IMG/VR virus record: IMGVR_UViG_2654587540_000005
Source of the DNA: a virus
Taxonomy: Duplodnaviria; Heunggongvirae; Uroviricota; Caudoviricetes
Strand: one strand, 5' to 3'
Length of the DNA stretch: 44,661 nucleotides
Both the position numbers and the translations under genes were made by a program. Shown in pieces: positions 415-43,728 of the stretch (its first letter is position 1; the number at the start of each line of letters is the position of its first letter). Below the pieces are notes generated by a model, which was not told the origin of the DNA, ran no database searches, and worked only from the letters and a program-made list of their open reading frames with translations.

Positions 415-1677
415 CTAATTCATTTTCTTTATTCTCTGGGCGAATTCAAACGGTGTAATGTGTTCTTTTCTGTTGGCATTAAGGTAGTCAGCCCACCATT
501 GTAACATGAGTTTTCTCTCTTCGAGATGTTCCGCTTTGTGGATATATGCTGCCCGAACCGAGTTACGCTCTTGGTGGCTCATTTGACGTTCTACGGCGTC
601 TCTTGACCATAACCCAGATTCGATTAATGCACTACAAGCCATAGTTCGAAAACCGTGACCACAAACTTCAGCTTTCGTGTCGTAACCCATGGTGCGAAGA
701 GCCTTGTTAACAGTGTTTTCGCTGATTGGTTTGTCATCGCGACTAAAACCAATGAACATAAGATCCTTTTCTCCACTTATAGCTTGGAGCCTTTTAAATA
801 ATACTACAGCCTGCTTACTTAGCGGCACAAGATGAGGGGTTTTCATTTTTGAGCCCCTATTTGAATACTTAACCCCCTCCAATTCTCGTCTTTCTGCAGG
901 GATTGTCCATAAGGAGTTTTTGAAATTCACCTCAGACCAACGAGCGAATCTAAGTTCACTTGAACGGATGAAAGTCAGTAGAGTTAATTGAACTGCTATT
1001 TGAGTGATACCTTTCCCTTTATAGGCATCAATCCGTTTGAGAAGCTCAGGAAGTCGTTCGAGGGGAAGGGCAGGGCGGTGATTACTCTTGGCAGTGGTTA
1101 CAGCGCCTGCGAGGTCGTAAGCTGGGTTTTGGTCAATCAAAGCATTGTGAACAGCATACCGCATGATGGCAGTGATTCTTTGTTGTAAACGGGCAGCAAG
1201 TTCAAGATGTCCAGTTTCCTCTGCTTTTTTCAGAGGAACAAGTAAATCACGAGTTTTAAGCTCACTAATGTTCCGCTTACCGATAACAGGAAATACATGA
1301 GTGATCAGGCTGTTTAATACGGTAGTTCTGTGACTGTCTGACCAGGTTCTGTTGCTTGAGTGCCAGTCTCTGGCAACAGTTTCAAAAATGAGTAAGCCTT
1401 TCTCTTCAATCTTTTCTGTTTTTCGCTTTTCGCCAGGGTCAACATTGTTGGCAATGAGTTGCCTTGCTTCTTCTCTTCTACGACGAGCTTCTGCTAAAGA
1501 CACTTCGGGATAAACACCAAGCGCCAACATTTTTTGCTTACCAGAAAAGCGATATTGAAGCCGCCAGTATTTTGAACCCGTAGGGTGAACCAGGAGATGC
1601 ATACCATCCCCATCTGTTAACTTGACGGGCTTTTCAGTAGGTTTCGCATTTCTGACTTTTACCTCAGTTAGTGCCAT
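415..1677 (-). CDS. int: Tyrosine site-specific integrase, P4-like family
   Basis: 420 aa ORF with ATG at 1677 preceded by GGAGG. N-terminus (KPTEKPVKLTDGDGMHLLVHP...YWRLQYRF) is a P4-type arm-binding domain and the C-terminal half has the tyrosine recombinase pattern (...HGFR...RAAYIH...). Confidence 0.85.
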   Translation of the reverse strand: MALTEVKVRNAKPTEKPVKLTDGDGMHLLVHPTGSKYWRLQYRFSGKQKMLALGVYPEVSLAEARRRREEARQLIANNVDPGEKRKTEKIEEKGLLIFETVARDWHSSNRTWSDSHRTTVLNSLITHVFPVIGKRNISELKTRDLLVPLKKAEETGHLELAARLQQRITAIMRYAVHNALIDQNPAYDLAGAVTTAKSNHRPALPLERLPELLKRIDAYKGKGITQIAVQLTLLTFIRSSELRFARWSEVNFKNSLWTIPAERRELEGVKYSNRGSKMKTPHLVPLSKQAVVLFKRLQAISGEKDLMFIGFSRDDKPISENTVNKALRTMGYDTKAEVCGHGFRTMACSALIESGLWSRDAVERQMSHQERNSVRAAYIHKAEHLEERKLMLQWWADYLNANRKEHITPFEFAQRIKKMN

Positions 1678-1853: not shown

Positions 1854-1873
1854 TGGCGTCCCCTGCAGACATC
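1854..1873. repeat. Degenerate direct copy of the argW 3' end (putative distal att site)
   Basis: tggcgtcccctgcagacatc matches tggtgtcccctgcaggaatc at 43579..43598 in 17 of 20 positions, with an exact 11-bp core gtcccctgcag. It lies in the int/alpA intergenic gap. Confidence 0.45.
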
Positions 1874-1941: not shown

Positions 1942-2142
1942 TTACCCATTGGCGCGGCTTAAGAGCTTATTTTTGAATTCACAATGGTCACGATATAACC
2001 ATCTTGCTCGCCCGTGGATAACTTTGGCTTTAGGCAGGTCGCCGGACTTAATCCGGTCGTAGATGAAGGTTTTACCAAAGCCAGTATCAGCCATGATGAA
2101 TTTCAAATCAACCAGGGAATCAGGCTGTAGTTCGTGTTGCAT
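1942..2142 (-). CDS. alpA: AlpA-family HTH protein, putative excisionase/regulator
   Basis: 66 aa ORF with ATG at 2142 and a GGAGA RBS. Small HTH protein (…FIYDRIKSGDLPKAKVIHGRARWLYRD…) typical of AlpA/Xis-like proteins at prophage ends. Confidence 0.7.
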   Translation of the reverse strand: MQHELQPDSLVDLKFIMADTGFGKTFIYDRIKSGDLPKAKVIHGRARWLYRDHCEFKNKLLSRANG

Positions 2143-29912: not shown

Positions 29913-30150
<238 letters not shown>

Positions 30151-30173
<23 letters not shown>

Positions 30174-30651
30174 TTTAGTCCTTGCGGCATTACGTAAGCT
30201 CGGTGTGGCATCAAATGCCACGTTAACCGATGTCGAACCGCAGTCTATGGAAGACGGCGTCAACGACCTTGAAATGATGATGGCTGAATGGCTTGGAGGT
30301 GATGCGTCACCTGGTATCAACGTTGGCTACATTTTCGCTGATGCAGATGTCGCTCCAGATCCGGGCGATGAGCACGGTTTATCAAATAACGCTATCAATG
30401 CTGTTATTTTCAACCTTGCCTGCCGCATTGCACCGGATTATGCGCTGGAAGCGCCTGCAAAACTTATAACCACTGCCAGATACGGGAAAGAGCGACTCGT
30501 CAAACTGTCTGCAATGGACAGAGCAAAAGCCGCTAAATGTAAGTCCGGTTATCCAAACCGTATGCCTGTTGGTAGCGGTAACCAGTTGGCGAAGTGGAAC
30601 GGTTGGAATTACTTCCACCGAAAGGAACCTTGCGATAACGGGAGCGAATAA
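30151..30651 (+). CDS. Head completion / tail adaptor protein (P22 gp4-like)
   Basis: ATG at 30151; the ORF-track start at 30052 runs through the repeat in the wrong frame. Matches the gp4 type (…[27 protein letters not shown]…). Confidence 0.8.
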
Positions 30652-37447: not shown

Positions 37448-37771
37448 TTAATCATCCATGGATGGATTGAGCTTATCTCGTGTTGATGTGGCGATTTGTC
37501 CTACATTCCTAAGCCAAGATTTCAAATCCTTGATATTGTCATTGATTTCATGAATATCTTCTTTTTTTAGTCTGTTAATATTATTCTCAATAATTTCAAT
37601 GGATTGCTCAATATCAGATATAGTGAATGATAGTTTGTTCTTCTCATCTTTTATTGAGTTTTTAAGTGCTTCGTTCTCAGTCTTGAGGTCAGATATCTTT
37701 TGTTTTAAAGATGCCAGTTGGTACTGAACCACAATGAGTGCGATAGCTATCACGATAACTGTTGTATACAC
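37448..37771 (-). CDS. Membrane-anchored coiled-coil protein (moron at the sieA position)
   Basis: GTG start at 37771 with an AAGGAGG RBS; N-terminal TM helix (TTVIVIAIALIVV) then a lysine/glutamate-rich coiled coil. AT-rich; converges on the gp16 stop with no gap. Confidence 0.55.
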   Translation of the reverse strand: MYTTVIVIAIALIVVQYQLASLKQKISDLKTENEALKNSIKDEKNKLSFTISDIEQSIEIIENNINRLKKEDIHEINDNIKDLKSWLRNVGQIATSTRDKLNPSMDD

Positions 37772-37889
37772 ACCAACCTCCTTAGTTTTGAGCAGGATAC
37801 CATGAAAAAAGTAAACATCTTTTGCCTACTTCACATTTGAATGGTTTGTCATTAGGATGTTTCCGGTTTTTTCAAATATGGAAATTGAT

Positions 37890-38309
37890 ATGAAGAGGAT
37901 TATCGGCGTTGTTGCTGGCGCTATATTGTTATCTGGGTGCGCAACTATTGTTGGTGACGAAACACAGCTCGTGCAAGTGAACAGCAATCCTTCCGGTGCG
38001 AGCTTTAAAGTAAAAGACGAATCAGGCGTGATTGTTGCGCAAGGCAAGACCCCGCAAGGAGTAACTCTTGCCAAGTCAGATGGTAGTTATTTTGGCAAAA
38101 AGAGCTACCAGATCACTATGGAAAAGGATGGGTACGAACCAGTTACCCTGCCAATCAAAGCCAATGCTAATGGTTGGTATATTGGTGGAAACCTTGTGTT
38201 TGGTGGGTTAATTGGTTGGCTTGCTGTAGATCCTTTTAATGGTGGGATGTATACCTTGAAGCCAAAAGAGGCAAACGCATCTCTTATACCATCAACAAAG
38301 CAAGACTAA
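37890..38309 (+). CDS. Lipoprotein (moron at the sieA position)
   Basis: ATG at 37890; signal peptide with lipobox (MKRIIGVVAGAILLSGC). AT-rich. Confidence 0.65.
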   Translation: MKRIIGVVAGAILLSGCATIVGDETQLVQVNSNPSGASFKVKDESGVIVAQGKTPQGVTLAKSDGSYFGKKSYQITMEKDGYEPVTLPIKANANGWYIGGNLVFGGLIGWLAVDPFNGGMYTLKPKEANASLIPSTKQD

Positions 38310-39776: not shown

Positions 39777-39795
39777 CAGATAACCAACGCAACGA

Positions 39796-39818
39796 CCCAG
39801 CTTCGGCTGGGTTTTTTT
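39796..39818 (+). terminator. Rho-independent terminator after ant
   Basis: CCCAGC-TTCG-GCTGGG followed by TTTTTTT. Confidence 0.6.
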
Positions 39819-39876
39819 ATGCCCAAAATTCACCGTAGCCATGCTGCGGCGATTCCTTGTATCTGGAGCAAATTAA

Positions 39877-42108
39877 ATGACAGACATTACAGCCAATGTT
39901 GTGGTAAGCATGCCTTCGCAACTCTTCACTATGGCGCGTTCTTTTAAAGCCGTAGCCAATGGCAAAATTTATATCGGTAAAATTGACACTGACCCTGTAA
40001 ATCCTGAAAACCAGATTCAGGTTTATGTGGAGAACGAAGATGGTTCTCACGTTCCTGTTGCACAGCCAATCATCATTAACTCTGGCGGGTATCCTGTATA
40101 TAACGGACAGATTGCCAAGTTCGTAACTGTGCAAGGCCATTCTATGGCTGTTTATGATGCATACGGTGCGCAGCAGTTCTATTTTCCTAATGTGCTGAAG
40201 TATGACCCTGATCAGTTTAGAACAATAATAGAGTCAAATTATGGTGCGGGGCATGTTGGTACTTCGTCTGGACTAACAATTCAGCAGTTGATTGATTCTT
40301 TTATTGTAGTTACACCACAAATGTTTGGTGAATCTGGAAAGTCAAATGATTCAACAATAGCAATTAACTCTGCATTGGACTATCTTGAGTCTCTCGGTGG
40401 TGGGATTATTTATCTTCCTCCAGGTAAATATTACGTCAGCATTGAAAATTCAGGTCATAATTATTCATGCATTAGAGTTCCAGCTAACGTAACTTTCTGT
40501 GGGGCTGGTGCTGGATCTACCATCATTCAGAGACTACCCACTGAGAGGGGGATGGATGGTGTCTTGATAACAAATAAATATTATGATACTAGAACTGGCT
40601 ATGGGGCTGCGGGCAATATTGTTTTTAGAGATTTTACAATCACTGACGGTAGCGCAACCCCAACAAGGGATTATGGTGATTTAATCGGTTTAGGTCATAG
40701 CAAAAATGTAACTATAGAGAGAGTGGAGCAAGGGAGACATGATCAACATTTTGTTGATATTGCAGGATCAACCGATGTAACAGTCAAAGACTGTCACGGG
40801 TCGTGTGATATGGAGGTGGACCATATTACGTGGAATTGTGATATACAGATTGATTCCGCTCAACCAAACGCAATACTTGGAATTAAAGCTGATGGCACAC
40901 CTAGCACAAATATAATTATTAGCGGAAATAAACTTCAAAACAAAAGCTCAAATTTGCAAATTGAAACAGGACATGCTGGGGGAGTATATAGAAATATTAT
41001 TATTTCTGATAACATACTTGATGGGGCATATTTTCAAGACTCATCAGTTATTGGTTGTAACTCAACAACAGCTACCATTATCAATTTGAGCATAAATAAC
41101 AATCAAATACTAACAAATAATATAAATTCAAGAGGTGTTAATCTTTATTGTCTTGGGAATAACGAAAAACTTATTGGTATTTCTTTTAGTAATAATATTA
41201 TAAGAGGTTATGCTAGGATTGGTGCATGGTTTGGGACTAATGGTAATTATACTGGAACGAAGTTTCCTCATGATGATGTAACAATAATAGGAAATAAATT
41301 CTTTCTAACATCGCCTTCATCTGGAACATTTGTTCAAGGTGTTGTTGTTGCTGGTTGGCGATCTGTTGTATGTAGTGATAATATAGTTGAGATATATTCT
41401 GATAATGAATTTTCTTCAGGGTGTTCGGGGATATCAGTTTGGAAAAATGGTAGTGCTAAGGTAAGTGATAACAATATCTCTAGAACATGTGGTGCAACAC
41501 CTGACGTATCATCTTCAGTTATTTCGTTGATACTAATCACCCCTGAACCTTCCAGCATTGATAAGGCGTCATCAATCCATATTAATGGAAATGCTTTCTT
41601 TGGAGATATTCCTAGATATGCAATAAATCACCAAGAAGGGTGGATTGAAGGATATGACATGATAGTTGTATCAGGCTCTCATGGTAGATTTAACCAAACA
41701 TTTATAGGCACGCAAGGGGCGCATATGTATGAAACGTACCCAATTTCTGATATGACAAATTTCAATCAACCAGTGTCAATAAATGGTCAATATAGAAGGC
41801 AGGTATACAGCGGAAATAATTACCAGTCAACGTTCAATTTGAAGAAAAATGGAAGTGAAACAAGTGGGGCTAAAGTGGATTTTTTTATATCTAATGAACG
41901 CTCAAAAATAACAGGTTCTGAACAATTGAATGTAGCATATATATCTCCAACTGAGTCTGTGGGAATCACCGCTACATCAATAGATTTGTCATCAGGAACA
42001 CTTAATATAATTACTGGAACAAATGGTGTATCTATGAATTTAAATCCATCCAATAAGCAGCCTGAAATAAGAAATAGCGCGTATATAAGCGCAAGGATTT
42101 CCATTTAA
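39877..42108 (+). CDS. Tailspike: P22-type head-binding N-terminus fused to a divergent beta-helix receptor-binding domain
   Basis: The first ~115 aa match the P22 gp9 head-binding domain ([12 protein letters not shown]...[33 protein letters not shown]…VLKYDPDQ). The remainder is AT-rich and repeat-like (…IIISGNKL…IIISDNIL…LSINNNQIL…), as in parallel beta-helix proteins. Confidence 0.8.
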
Positions 42109-42235
42109 AATTCAGAAATTAGCCATAAAAAGCATGAAGTCTATCATCCAAGTGTCAATCGATCGATGACTTGCTGTGGTTGATGAGACAAAACTGAGAC
42201 ACACAAAGCTTTGCACTGGATTGCAAGGCTTTGTG

Positions 42236-43417
42236 CTATCCGATGGTGTTTAAGTTTCCTAACTCCGCCTTTTCATCAAGCCAGTCCGCCCACCACTGCA
42301 TCATTTCTCTGCGCTTATCGAGATACTGAGCATGGTTGTAAATTCCGCGCACAGATCCGCCGTTGGCATGTGCCAGTTGCACTTCAATAGCGTCAGCAGG
42401 CCATTCGTGCTCGTTCATAATCGTGCTGAATTCATGCCTGAATCCGTGACCGCTTTCCAGACCTTCATAGCCGATTTGTTTGATCACAAGCAGTACAGCG
42501 TTCTCGCAAATTGGCTTCTTCTTATCGTTGCGCCCGGCAAAAACAAACTCTGACACTGGTTTAGTGATTGAGCTTAGCGTAGTGAGAAGTTCAACTACCT
42601 GGTCTGACATCGGTACTACATGAATCTTGCGACCCTTCATCACACTGGCGTCGATGGTGATAATCCTGTTTTCAAAATCGACGTTCTTCCATAGCATGGA
42701 ACGAAGTTCTTTCGTTCTTAGGGCGGTGTAGCGTAAAACTTTAGTCGCAATAAGCGATACGATACTTCCTGAAAATGTTGCCAGTGCTTTGTTGAATGCC
42801 GGGATCTGGTCTGCAGGAAGAAACGGGAAGTTCTTCTTGCGGTATCCTTTCATGGCGTCTGCAAGGTCAGGTGCCGGGTTATATTTAGCCCTTCCGGTGA
42901 CAATAGCGTAACGGAAAACCTCTCCGCATCTTCTGCGGGCTTTGTTGGCTCGCTCCATTGCACCGCGATCTTCAAATCTGCGGATTACTTCCAGCAGTTG
43001 CATCGGCTCAATATCCTGAATTTCAAGGCCGCCGATGATGGGTAAAATGTCGTCGTCAAACATTTTGGCAAGTTCGTTTGCATAGCCTACTGACCAGACT
43101 TGCTTCTTGTGCTCGTACCATTCCTTGTAAATGGCGCTAAAGGAATTGTTATTAGACGAAGCCTTTTTCGCTTTTACCGGATCGATGCCAACCGAGATGT
43201 CTTTCCTCGCGGTCCATGCTTTATCCCTTGCCTCCTGCAAAGTCATAAGCGGATATTTTCCGACGGTCAGTATTTTTTCCTTACCGTCAATCTTGTAGCG
43301 AAGCTGCCATACCTTTTTCCCGGATACAGGAACATAAAGGTACAGGCCATTACCATCGAGAAGGCGGTATGGTTTTTCTTTCGGCTTTGCTGCTTCAATC
43401 TGCTTAACGGTGAGCAT
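42236..43417 (-). CDS. intS: Tyrosine integrase, IntS-like (argW-associated)
   Basis: P4-type integrase adjacent to argW and co-oriented with it. ATG at 43417 (MLTVKQIEAAKPKEKPYRLLDG...); the ORF-track start at 43453 is a GTG. Contains the conserved HGFRH and tyrosine regions. Confidence 0.85.
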   Translation of the reverse strand: MLTVKQIEAAKPKEKPYRLLDGNGLYLYVPVSGKKVWQLRYKIDGKEKILTVGKYPLMTLQEARDKAWTARKDISVGIDPVKAKKASSNNNSFSAIYKEWYEHKKQVWSVGYANELAKMFDDDILPIIGGLEIQDIEPMQLLEVIRRFEDRGAMERANKARRRCGEVFRYAIVTGRAKYNPAPDLADAMKGYRKKNFPFLPADQIPAFNKALATFSGSIVSLIATKVLRYTALRTKELRSMLWKNVDFENRIITIDASVMKGRKIHVVPMSDQVVELLTTLSSITKPVSEFVFAGRNDKKKPICENAVLLVIKQIGYEGLESGHGFRHEFSTIMNEHEWPADAIEVQLAHANGGSVRGIYNHAQYLDKRREMMQWWADWLDEKAELGNLNTIG

Positions 43418-43578
43418 GGGTAAAAATCCGGTGGGTAAAATTATTTTATCCACTTTTTACCCGTCATGGTGTGCGGCTGTCAACGATCTGACGCGAACCA
43501 TTACGAACTGTGAATCTATGGAAGGCTTGATATGCAGGGGATTTTGCGGACTAGTACGGATGGGAGCGAACTGATAAA

Positions 43579-43653
43579 TGGTGTCCCCTGCAGGAATCGA
43601 ACCTGCAATTAGCCCTTAGGAGGGGCTCGTTATATCCATTTAACTAAGAGGAC
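43579..43653 (-). tRNA. argW: tRNA-Arg (anticodon CCU)
   Basis: 75-nt minus-strand cloverleaf: 7-bp acceptor stem (GTCCTCT/AGGGGAC), anticodon stem AGCCC/GGGCT with loop CUCCUAA giving anticodon CCU, T-arm GGTTCGATTCC, 3' ACCA. Confidence 0.9.
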
Positions 43654-43728
43654 AATGCGGCATGAGTATACCCGCTAATGGACTGCGGGGTAAGTACGCT
43701 GCCGCTCGATTGCTTAAACCCTCGCCAT

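Follow-up and report, generated by a model that had tools for sequence, protein, structure and literature searches.

A P22-like argW prophage with a modular tailspike: an imported beta-helix cassette, probably directed at the O82 O-antigen, beside an empty conversion slot

A mosaic tailspike belongs to the normal modular biology of P22-like phages. In Sf6 (tailspike gp14, oac, int, attP, xis) the tailspike gene is followed by a convergent slot and by int, past which come the att core and a xis of TorI type; oac fills the slot, and the receptor-binding domain of the tailspike is an endorhamnosidase. In HK620 (gp9, hkcF), whose tailspike helix is an O18A1 endo-N-acetylglucosaminidase, the slot is occupied by a wzy-like cargo gene, whereas the CPS-53/KplE1 prophage of Escherichia coli K-12 carries gtrA-gtrB-gtrS (yfdGHI) right after the spacer that follows its integrase gene intS, and has tail-fibre remnants and no P22 tailspike. 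Kapi1 is a further P22-like phage of the argW site, with a conserved head-binding domain in an otherwise novel tailspike (PMC8787464). Here we analyse the tailspike gene and the adjoining integration end of a prophage contained in 44,661 nt of DNA (IMG/VR virus record IMGVR_UViG_2654587540_000005; the whole stretch is referred to as the window), of which a preliminary description had been made from the sequence alone. In the reading that we hold to be probable, this is a P22-like argW prophage with a modular tailspike, in which an imported beta-helix cassette, most likely one that cleaves the O82 O-antigen, lies next to an empty cargo slot. The current understanding of P22-like phages is unchanged by this locus; what is new are the precise limits of the cassette, a previously uncharacterised beta-helix family and the prediction of O82 specificity.

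As is usual in P22-like phages, the 743-aa tailspike is encoded last in the late operon, preceded by the needle gene, the ejection genes and immI (mnt/arc/ant). Its sole Pfam domain is the P22-type head-binding, or particle-anchoring, domain (Head_binding PF09008, E = 8.2e-67), matched at full length over residues 1-113. This N-terminus, already recognised in the preliminary description, resembles the solved Sf6 and P22 head-binding domains (E from 2e-63 to 1e-50, with the Sf6 tailspike at 2e-63) and is closed by VLKYDPDQ (residues 106-113, nt 40192-40215). At the DNA level, the 5′ end of the gene is 89-96% identical to the tailspike genes of Sf6 and of the E. coli prophages MB06022 and CT02. 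We mapped the joints by blastn of the window against six relatives, and found that homology on the left ends at 40214 (MB06022), 40217 (Sf6) and 40221 (CT02), corresponding to residues 113-115. A switch near VLKYDPDQ, at about 115 aa, had been proposed beforehand and holds against these three, but against HK620 blastn homology extends up to 40259, that is, residue 128, after GAGHVG, and BLASTP also finds both tailspikes near-identical as far as residue 128. On the right, homology resumes at 42125 (K-12), 42127 (HK620) and 42129 (MB06022), and the 16 nt that separate the tailspike stop from the conserved spacer accompany the cassette in all carriers. The GC content is 0.432 in the head-binding part and 0.362 in 40222-42108, with local minima down to 0.29, against 0.472 for the prophage, in agreement with the AT-richness first noted for the remainder of the tailspike. 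The tailspike record of CUS-3, matched over residues 1-144, bears a 'bsq1; boundary sequence' annotation.

That the receptor-binding module was acquired horizontally, as the preliminary description supposed, is well supported by these sequence comparisons: breakpoints are sharp on both sides, the GC content drops by 9-11 points, the module recurs at 99.7% identity or more in three prophage backbones and integration sites, and its relatives are limited to proteins that are 70% or at most 39% identical, from metagenomes, a Vibrio phage and podovirus-like contigs. We propose that the cassette would have entered through two recurrent module joints, namely the boundary at the head-binding end and the far end of the post-intS spacer, the left boundary sequence being VLKYDPDQ or, in HK620-type genes, a point 13 codons further on. 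Residues 1-113 would then fix the tailspike trimer to the tail, and residues ~116-743 would represent the imported receptor-binding part.

The module is rare. A word-indexed search of 5.8 billion proteins returned nine matching clusters, one identical, one at 70% and the others at 42% identity or less, and a profile scan of 1.84 billion representatives gave 42 with E < 1e-30; the identical protein (P0001) is the representative of 190 member sequences. Among 50,697 phage records there was one strong match to the receptor-binding module, a Vibrio phage protein with 37% identity. The other matches in this collection, from Brevibacterium, Bacillus, Rhodococcus and Synechococcus phages, were weak (~26-27% identity, E from 3e-6 to 3e-4 among those listed), and none of the matches came from a coliphage. 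One 37%-identical homologue lies directly after ejection-protein genes in an unrelated podovirus-like contig, and the 70%-identical homologue (P0002) stands beside a different integrase in a P22-like context. As DNA, the module is present in 7 of 5,426 complete E. coli genomes; no copy falls below 99.7% identity, and PGAP labels the protein 'phage tailspike protein' in all seven. It occurs there in three contexts: argW/IntS prophages, prophages located between sbcB and dacD that carry the spacer plus 85 bp of the intS 3′ end, and a prophage with a different integrase. The spacer and the 85-bp intS fragment in the sbcB-dacD prophages therefore point to transfer from an IntS-type phage.

Several of these copies have features of their own. 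In the sbcB-dacD prophages of strains VE-T2 and 2017.18.04CC (L007 7850-8058 and L011 48429-48637) the tailspike is followed by the spacer and the intS fragment, with no integrase gene annotated from the tailspike to dacD, and strain 2017.18.04CC holds two copies of the 743-aa tailspike. In ET729 (NZ_CP100927.1 1492477-1506325) the order tailspike-intS-torI-early genes corresponds to two tandem prophage copies at argW, which also display the circular phage order across attP. P0002, encoded on a metagenome contig from JGI (L016 689-2476), is called without a head-binding domain, its start coinciding with the position of residue 149, and has a convergent Arm-DNA-bind_2 integrase 350 bp away; either its prophage is degraded and the tailspike truncated, or the start may have been mis-called.

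Beyond the head-binding domain, the protein gave no match in the Pfam or NCBIfam libraries; PHROG 2234 'tail spike protein' was matched with E = 6e-14. An AlphaFold2 monomer model of residues 116-743 (predicted template modelling score, pTM, 0.74) predicts a right-handed parallel beta-helix, the C-terminal receptor-binding domain of P22-like tailspikes, with block means of the predicted local distance difference test (pLDDT) mostly at 75-97 and a drop near the end of the helix. The short repeated beta-strand-like segments noticed earlier can be recognised as rungs of this predicted helix, and the structure prediction called for in the preliminary description thus returned a fold that supports an enzymatic receptor-binding part rather than a non-enzymatic one. 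Alignments of the C-terminal domain keep the pattern ...IITGxxGVSxxINxSTxQPxIRT.... Across 37 homologues with 27-70% identity, D294 is invariant, and R219, N233, Y242, H288, Q290, H291, Q324, D326 and H366 are at least 90% conserved. The family signature H288-D-Q290-H291-x-V-D294 aligns with the catalytic YGFDPH loop of AlgE; the A-modules of AlgE4 and AlgE6 were the sole sequence-level Protein Data Bank (PDB) matches of the receptor part (E = 1e-8). The tailspike has the predicted beta-helix and the N-terminal cap motif of an AlgE-type A-module, and in place of the catalytic YG(F/I)DPH(D/E) loop it has H-F-V-D-I-A-G. As the loop retains the Asp alone, the tailspike is not classed as a member of the AlgE family, an assignment that we considered and dropped; and as the Tyr and His are not kept, its chemistry cannot be read off AlgE. 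The conservation pattern suggests an enzyme, though one outside the AlgE family.

Carriers of the module are enriched in serogroup O82. According to the PGAP wzx/wzy names, four of the seven carrier genomes are O82 (2017.18.04CC, MSHS 472, ET729 and GDSC2BY4G), two are O48 (VE-T2 and VE-T10) and one is O131 (OHT76-1), compared with 7 O82 genomes out of 5,426 overall (Fisher P = 3.4e-11; the genomes are not fully independent). The idea that the receptor-binding module sets O-antigen or capsule specificity, put forward in the preliminary description, is still something that we infer, now with the statistical backing of this association. The beta-helix would bind and cleave the O82 O-antigen, thereby fixing which cells the phage adsorbs to, and we predict an O82 source strain. 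VE-T2, the first of the hosts to be typed, had suggested an O48 phage; this candidate was dropped when further carriers proved to be O82 and O131, with the O48 and O131 copies lying in remnants (just four genomes, including two carriers, matched an O48 probe). Indeed, the non-O82 copies sit in heavily deleted prophages: OHT76-1 keeps only ~7.7 kb, and the VE-T2 prophage, which is separated from the O-antigen cluster by ~40 kb, no longer has any head genes and carries an IS3 upstream of the tailspike. Such remnants are compatible with vertical retention after replacement of the O-antigen following lysogeny.

Several observations weigh against the proposal of an O82 O-antigen-cleaving module. 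Three of the seven carriers are not O82, the four O82 carriers are not fully independent, two of them having identical gnd and ugd proteins, and all O-types were read from PGAP names only. On the protein side, the last ~140 residues of the tailspike were not confidently modelled, and the catalytic Tyr and His of AlgE are not conserved (H-F-V-D-I-A/C here versus Y-G-F-D-P-H). In addition, the only experimentally O82-specific tailspike is TSP2 of AV101, an Agtrevirus and lytic myovirus, for which a beta-helix has been described (PMC10791037); the AV101 genome is present in the phage collection that we searched and was not matched by the module at E ≤ 1e-3, so homology to TSP2, also considered, was not found. 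In an alternative explanation, the target of the module is not the O-antigen but a different surface polysaccharide common to strains of several O types (a K capsule, colanic acid or some other exopolysaccharide), and the O82 enrichment is a lineage effect. The carriers do include O48 and O131 strains, colanic acid loci are found in all carriers examined, CUS-3 combines the same head-binding domain with a capsule-specific endosialidase, and the closest folds and only sequence-level PDB matches are exopolysaccharide enzymes (AlgE4/AlgE6, the RbmB VPS lyase, and the K1 and K5 capsule lyases). Set beside the enrichment of O82 among the carriers, we regard this explanation as unlikely.

If the beta-helix were instead an adhesin that binds its receptor without depolymerase activity, a cluster of His, Asp, Gln, Arg and Tyr residues that vary little or not at all would have to be accounted for; these residues lie on successive rungs, are centred on the AlgE active-site loop and persist in homologues down to 27% identity. 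We count against an adhesin also that the P22-family tailspikes characterised so far (P22, Sf6, HK620 and CUS-3) are, to our knowledge, enzymes, and we consider it improbable. The deleted remnants of OHT76-1 and VE-T2 could also be taken to mean that the tailspike is a decaying passenger of a cryptic prophage, with no current role. The window, however, has both att cores, intS, torI, immI, an intact 743-aa open reading frame (ORF) and, in the late region, a set of ORFs of full length and of the size of late genes, among them Sf6-like genes for needle and ejection proteins; moreover, the ET729 tandem double lysogen is a sign of recent integration and the module is nearly invariant in all its copies, so that we give decay very little credence. 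We thus favour an enzyme that cleaves the O82 O-antigen. A narrower version of this proposal, in which the module is the first member of an uncharacterised family of phage depolymerases (~40 representatives with E < 1e-30), cleaves the phosphoglycerol-type O82 O-antigen by means of a His/Asp loop placed structurally where alginate epimerases have their active site, and evolved independently of AV101 TSP2, is advanced only tentatively.

The tailspike and intS are separated, stop to stop, by the 127 bp at 42109-42235; here, as elsewhere, the coordinates of the preliminary description hold, including the tailspike stop at 42108. This gap is too short for a gtrABC or oac cassette next to int. When K-12 GtrA, GtrB and GtrS, Sf6 Oac and HK620 HkcF were compared by tblastn with the whole 44.6-kb window, the best E value was 0.3; no gtr or oac homologue is therefore hidden in the gap, and the absence of conversion genes first reported for the gap extends to the window. 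These genes had been described as missing or never present: their absence stands, and the locus itself does not separate loss from original absence. The blastn alignment to K-12 that holds the spacer (42125-43700) is 95% identical and stops 18 nt before the ATG of gtrA (yfdG). The gtr homologues attributed to CPS-53 are indeed right after intS (yfdG, yfdH and yfdI are gtrA, gtrB and gtrS), and in Sf6 a conversion gene, oac, does lie between tailspike and int. The expected location between tailspike and att needs one refinement: the slot exists, but int stands between it and att, the order being tailspike, spacer, intS, attL.

We considered and dropped the interpretation of this end as the scar of a gtr deletion, since the alignments with HK620 and MB06022 end where the spacer homology to K-12 does, in HK620 with a different cargo. 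This marks the position as a recurrent module boundary, and a deletion in this lineage is not proven by it. In relatives the slot between spacer and tailspike holds variable lysogenic-conversion cargo; in this prophage it is empty. Elsewhere the slot contains decayed cargo, which in CT02 is a DUF2142 (GtrC-like) fragment and in MB06022 the remaining 63 bp of gtrA. An intact K-12-type gtrA junction is present in 538 of the 2,059 complete genomes matching an intS-end/spacer/gtrA probe, and in most of the top-ranked argW prophages, a list biased toward short gaps, the tailspike is directly beside intS. Lack of gtr at this slot is thus common rather than unusual. Kapi1 has no recognisable gtr or oac and yet alters the O-antigen (PMC8787464); an empty slot is therefore no proof of a lack of conversion. 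The hairpin directly after the intS stop is kept in K-12 and MB06022 and has no canonical T-run; it is probably a terminator between the two convergent genes. The features of the locus are collected in Table 1.

Table 1. Coordinates of the tailspike gene, the exchanged cassette and the integration module in the window
Feature	Position	Strand	Basis or remark
attR core TGGCGTCCCCTGCAG, other prophage end	1854..1868		one mismatch to argW 3′ end
torI, excisionase partner of IntS	1942..2142	-	100% identical to K-12 TorI and Sf6 gp18
Terminator-like hairpin after ant, before tailspike start	39794..39813	+	scan: 8-bp stem + T-run
Tailspike coding sequence, 743 aa	39877..42108	+	last gene of late operon; ORF list
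P22-type head-binding (particle-anchoring) domain, residues 1-113	39877..40215	+	Pfam Head_binding PF09008
Linker/neck, common only to HK620-type tailspikes; second, nested recombination joint	40216..40259	+	BLASTP + blastn
Exchanged cassette: receptor-binding module + 16 nt past stop, 36% GC	40222..42124 (approx.)	+	blastn breakpoints, GC
Predicted right-handed parallel beta-helix with N-terminal cap motif, residues ~156-545	40342..41511	+	AlphaFold2 model
H288-D-Q290-H291-F-V-D294 loop, candidate catalytic rung	40738..40758	+	conservation + AlgE loop alignment
C-terminal domain, residues ~602-743	41680..42105	+	conserved in full-length homologues; pLDDT <50 in monomer model
16-nt joint, tailspike stop to conserved spacer	42109..42124		no homology to K-12, MB06022, HK620, CT02
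Conserved spacer 3′ of intS; empty lysogenic-conversion cargo slot at its far end	42125..42235	-	blastn to K-12
14-bp perfect hairpin directly after intS stop	42202..42235		found on folding either strand (z -2.7 and -2.1)
intS, tyrosine integrase of KplE1/CPS-53/Sf6 type	42236..43393 (K-12-length; ORF 42236..43453)	-	Pfam
argW tRNA-Arg(CCU); attL core = its 3′ 15 nt (43579-43593)	43579..43653	-	ARAGORN

The window holds a complete P22-like (Lederbergvirus-type) prophage of ~41.7 kb in argW. IntS, with the Pfam domains Arm-DNA-bind_3, Phage_int_M and Phage_integrase, reads away from argW, TorI lies at the other end, and the core is present at both ends; for this 15-nt repeat with one mismatch the chance expectation is 0.08, and the attR core is located 74 bp past torI, as in K-12 pawZ. 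An exact 16-bp repeat, GGAATCGAACCTGCAA (2162-2177 and 43593-43608), was examined as attR/attL and dropped, for torI lies to its left and the true core is at 1854-1868. The repeat equals the argW T-arm; its copy just upstream of the torI start lies inside the prophage, ~300 bp from the attR core. It could be what remains of an attP with a longer tRNA segment, or be due to chance (~0.4 expected 16-mer pairs in 44 kb). A second integrase, of P4 type and 420 aa (415-1677, minus strand; NCBIfam PRK09692, E = 3e-69), is encoded where K-12 has dsdC; its gene begins ~180 bp beyond attR and points away from the prophage. A further integrative element has probably inserted in tandem here, at the pseudo-argW site.

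Upstream of the tailspike, the genes match Sf6 in the needle (98%) and in gp7-like (76%) and gp20-like (41%) products; the ejection proteins gave no NCBIfam match. Directly upstream are Arc-like repressors (mnt/arc-like) and Ant (P22AR_C + Bro-N). The terminator-like hairpin between ant and tailspike corresponds to the position of tANT in HK620. Relatives have ~356 bp more between these two genes (L001 3078-3533 versus window 39777-39876), an insert absent from the window, at whose left edge 58 bp from around the tailspike start (window 39832-39889) are duplicated. Two AT-rich (39% GC) moron-like ORFs separate the gp16-like gene from mnt (37448-38309), one for a 107-aa coiled-coil/transmembrane protein (phrog_5962) and the other for a lipoprotein of 150 aa that has an LSGC lipobox and matches PEGA weakly (phrog_6823). 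They occupy the position of hkcB/hkcC in HK620, which we take to be also that of sieA in P22, and are candidates for exclusion or surface-modification roles. Finally, a perfect (CAGAGC)n hexanucleotide array of ~46 bp (30058-30103), at the start of the ORF 30052-30651 in the late region, codes for a short dipeptide repeat.

Tailspike receptor modules decide which serogroups can be reached by a phage, an engineered phage or a diagnostic protein. A catalogue assigning modules to E. coli O-groups makes no mention of O82, O48 or O131 (PMC10408124). The locus described here supplies a candidate O82 module, cleanly mapped joints on both sides of the cassette and a conversion slot in its empty state.

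Compared with the systems introduced above, the locus is closest in its backbone to Sf6, with which it shares gene order, a head-binding domain near-identical up to ...KYDPDQF, an Int that is 98% and an Xis that is 100% identical at the amino acid level; past residue ~115 there is no significant similarity to the endorhamnosidase except for a generic beta-helix cap. The HK620 tailspike has no sequence similarity to it past residue ~130. K-12 CPS-53/KplE1 shares the argW site, IntS (98%), TorI (100%), the att cores and the post-intS spacer. Kapi1 is matched by the window tailspike at the N-terminus, and its receptor-binding part gave no match to the module in the search of phage records; it differs also in having small ORFs between tailspike and int, and demonstrably alters the O-antigen (PMC8787464). 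In the coliphage CUS-3, too, a receptor module of foreign origin follows a head-binding domain of P22 type (81% over residues 1-144), but that module is a K1 endosialidase and not of the beta-helix family found here. AV101 TSP2 possibly acts on the same substrate, the O82 O-antigen, from a different anchor domain. In the A-modules of the mannuronan C5-epimerases AlgE4 and AlgE6 (PDB 2pyg and 5lw3), the catalytic residues are numbered Y149, D152 and H154 in AlgE4, of which Y149 and H154 correspond to His and Ala/Cys in the tailspike; the tailspike further differs in that it belongs to a phage virion and has an additional domain at its C-terminus, and alginate is an implausible substrate in E. 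coli.

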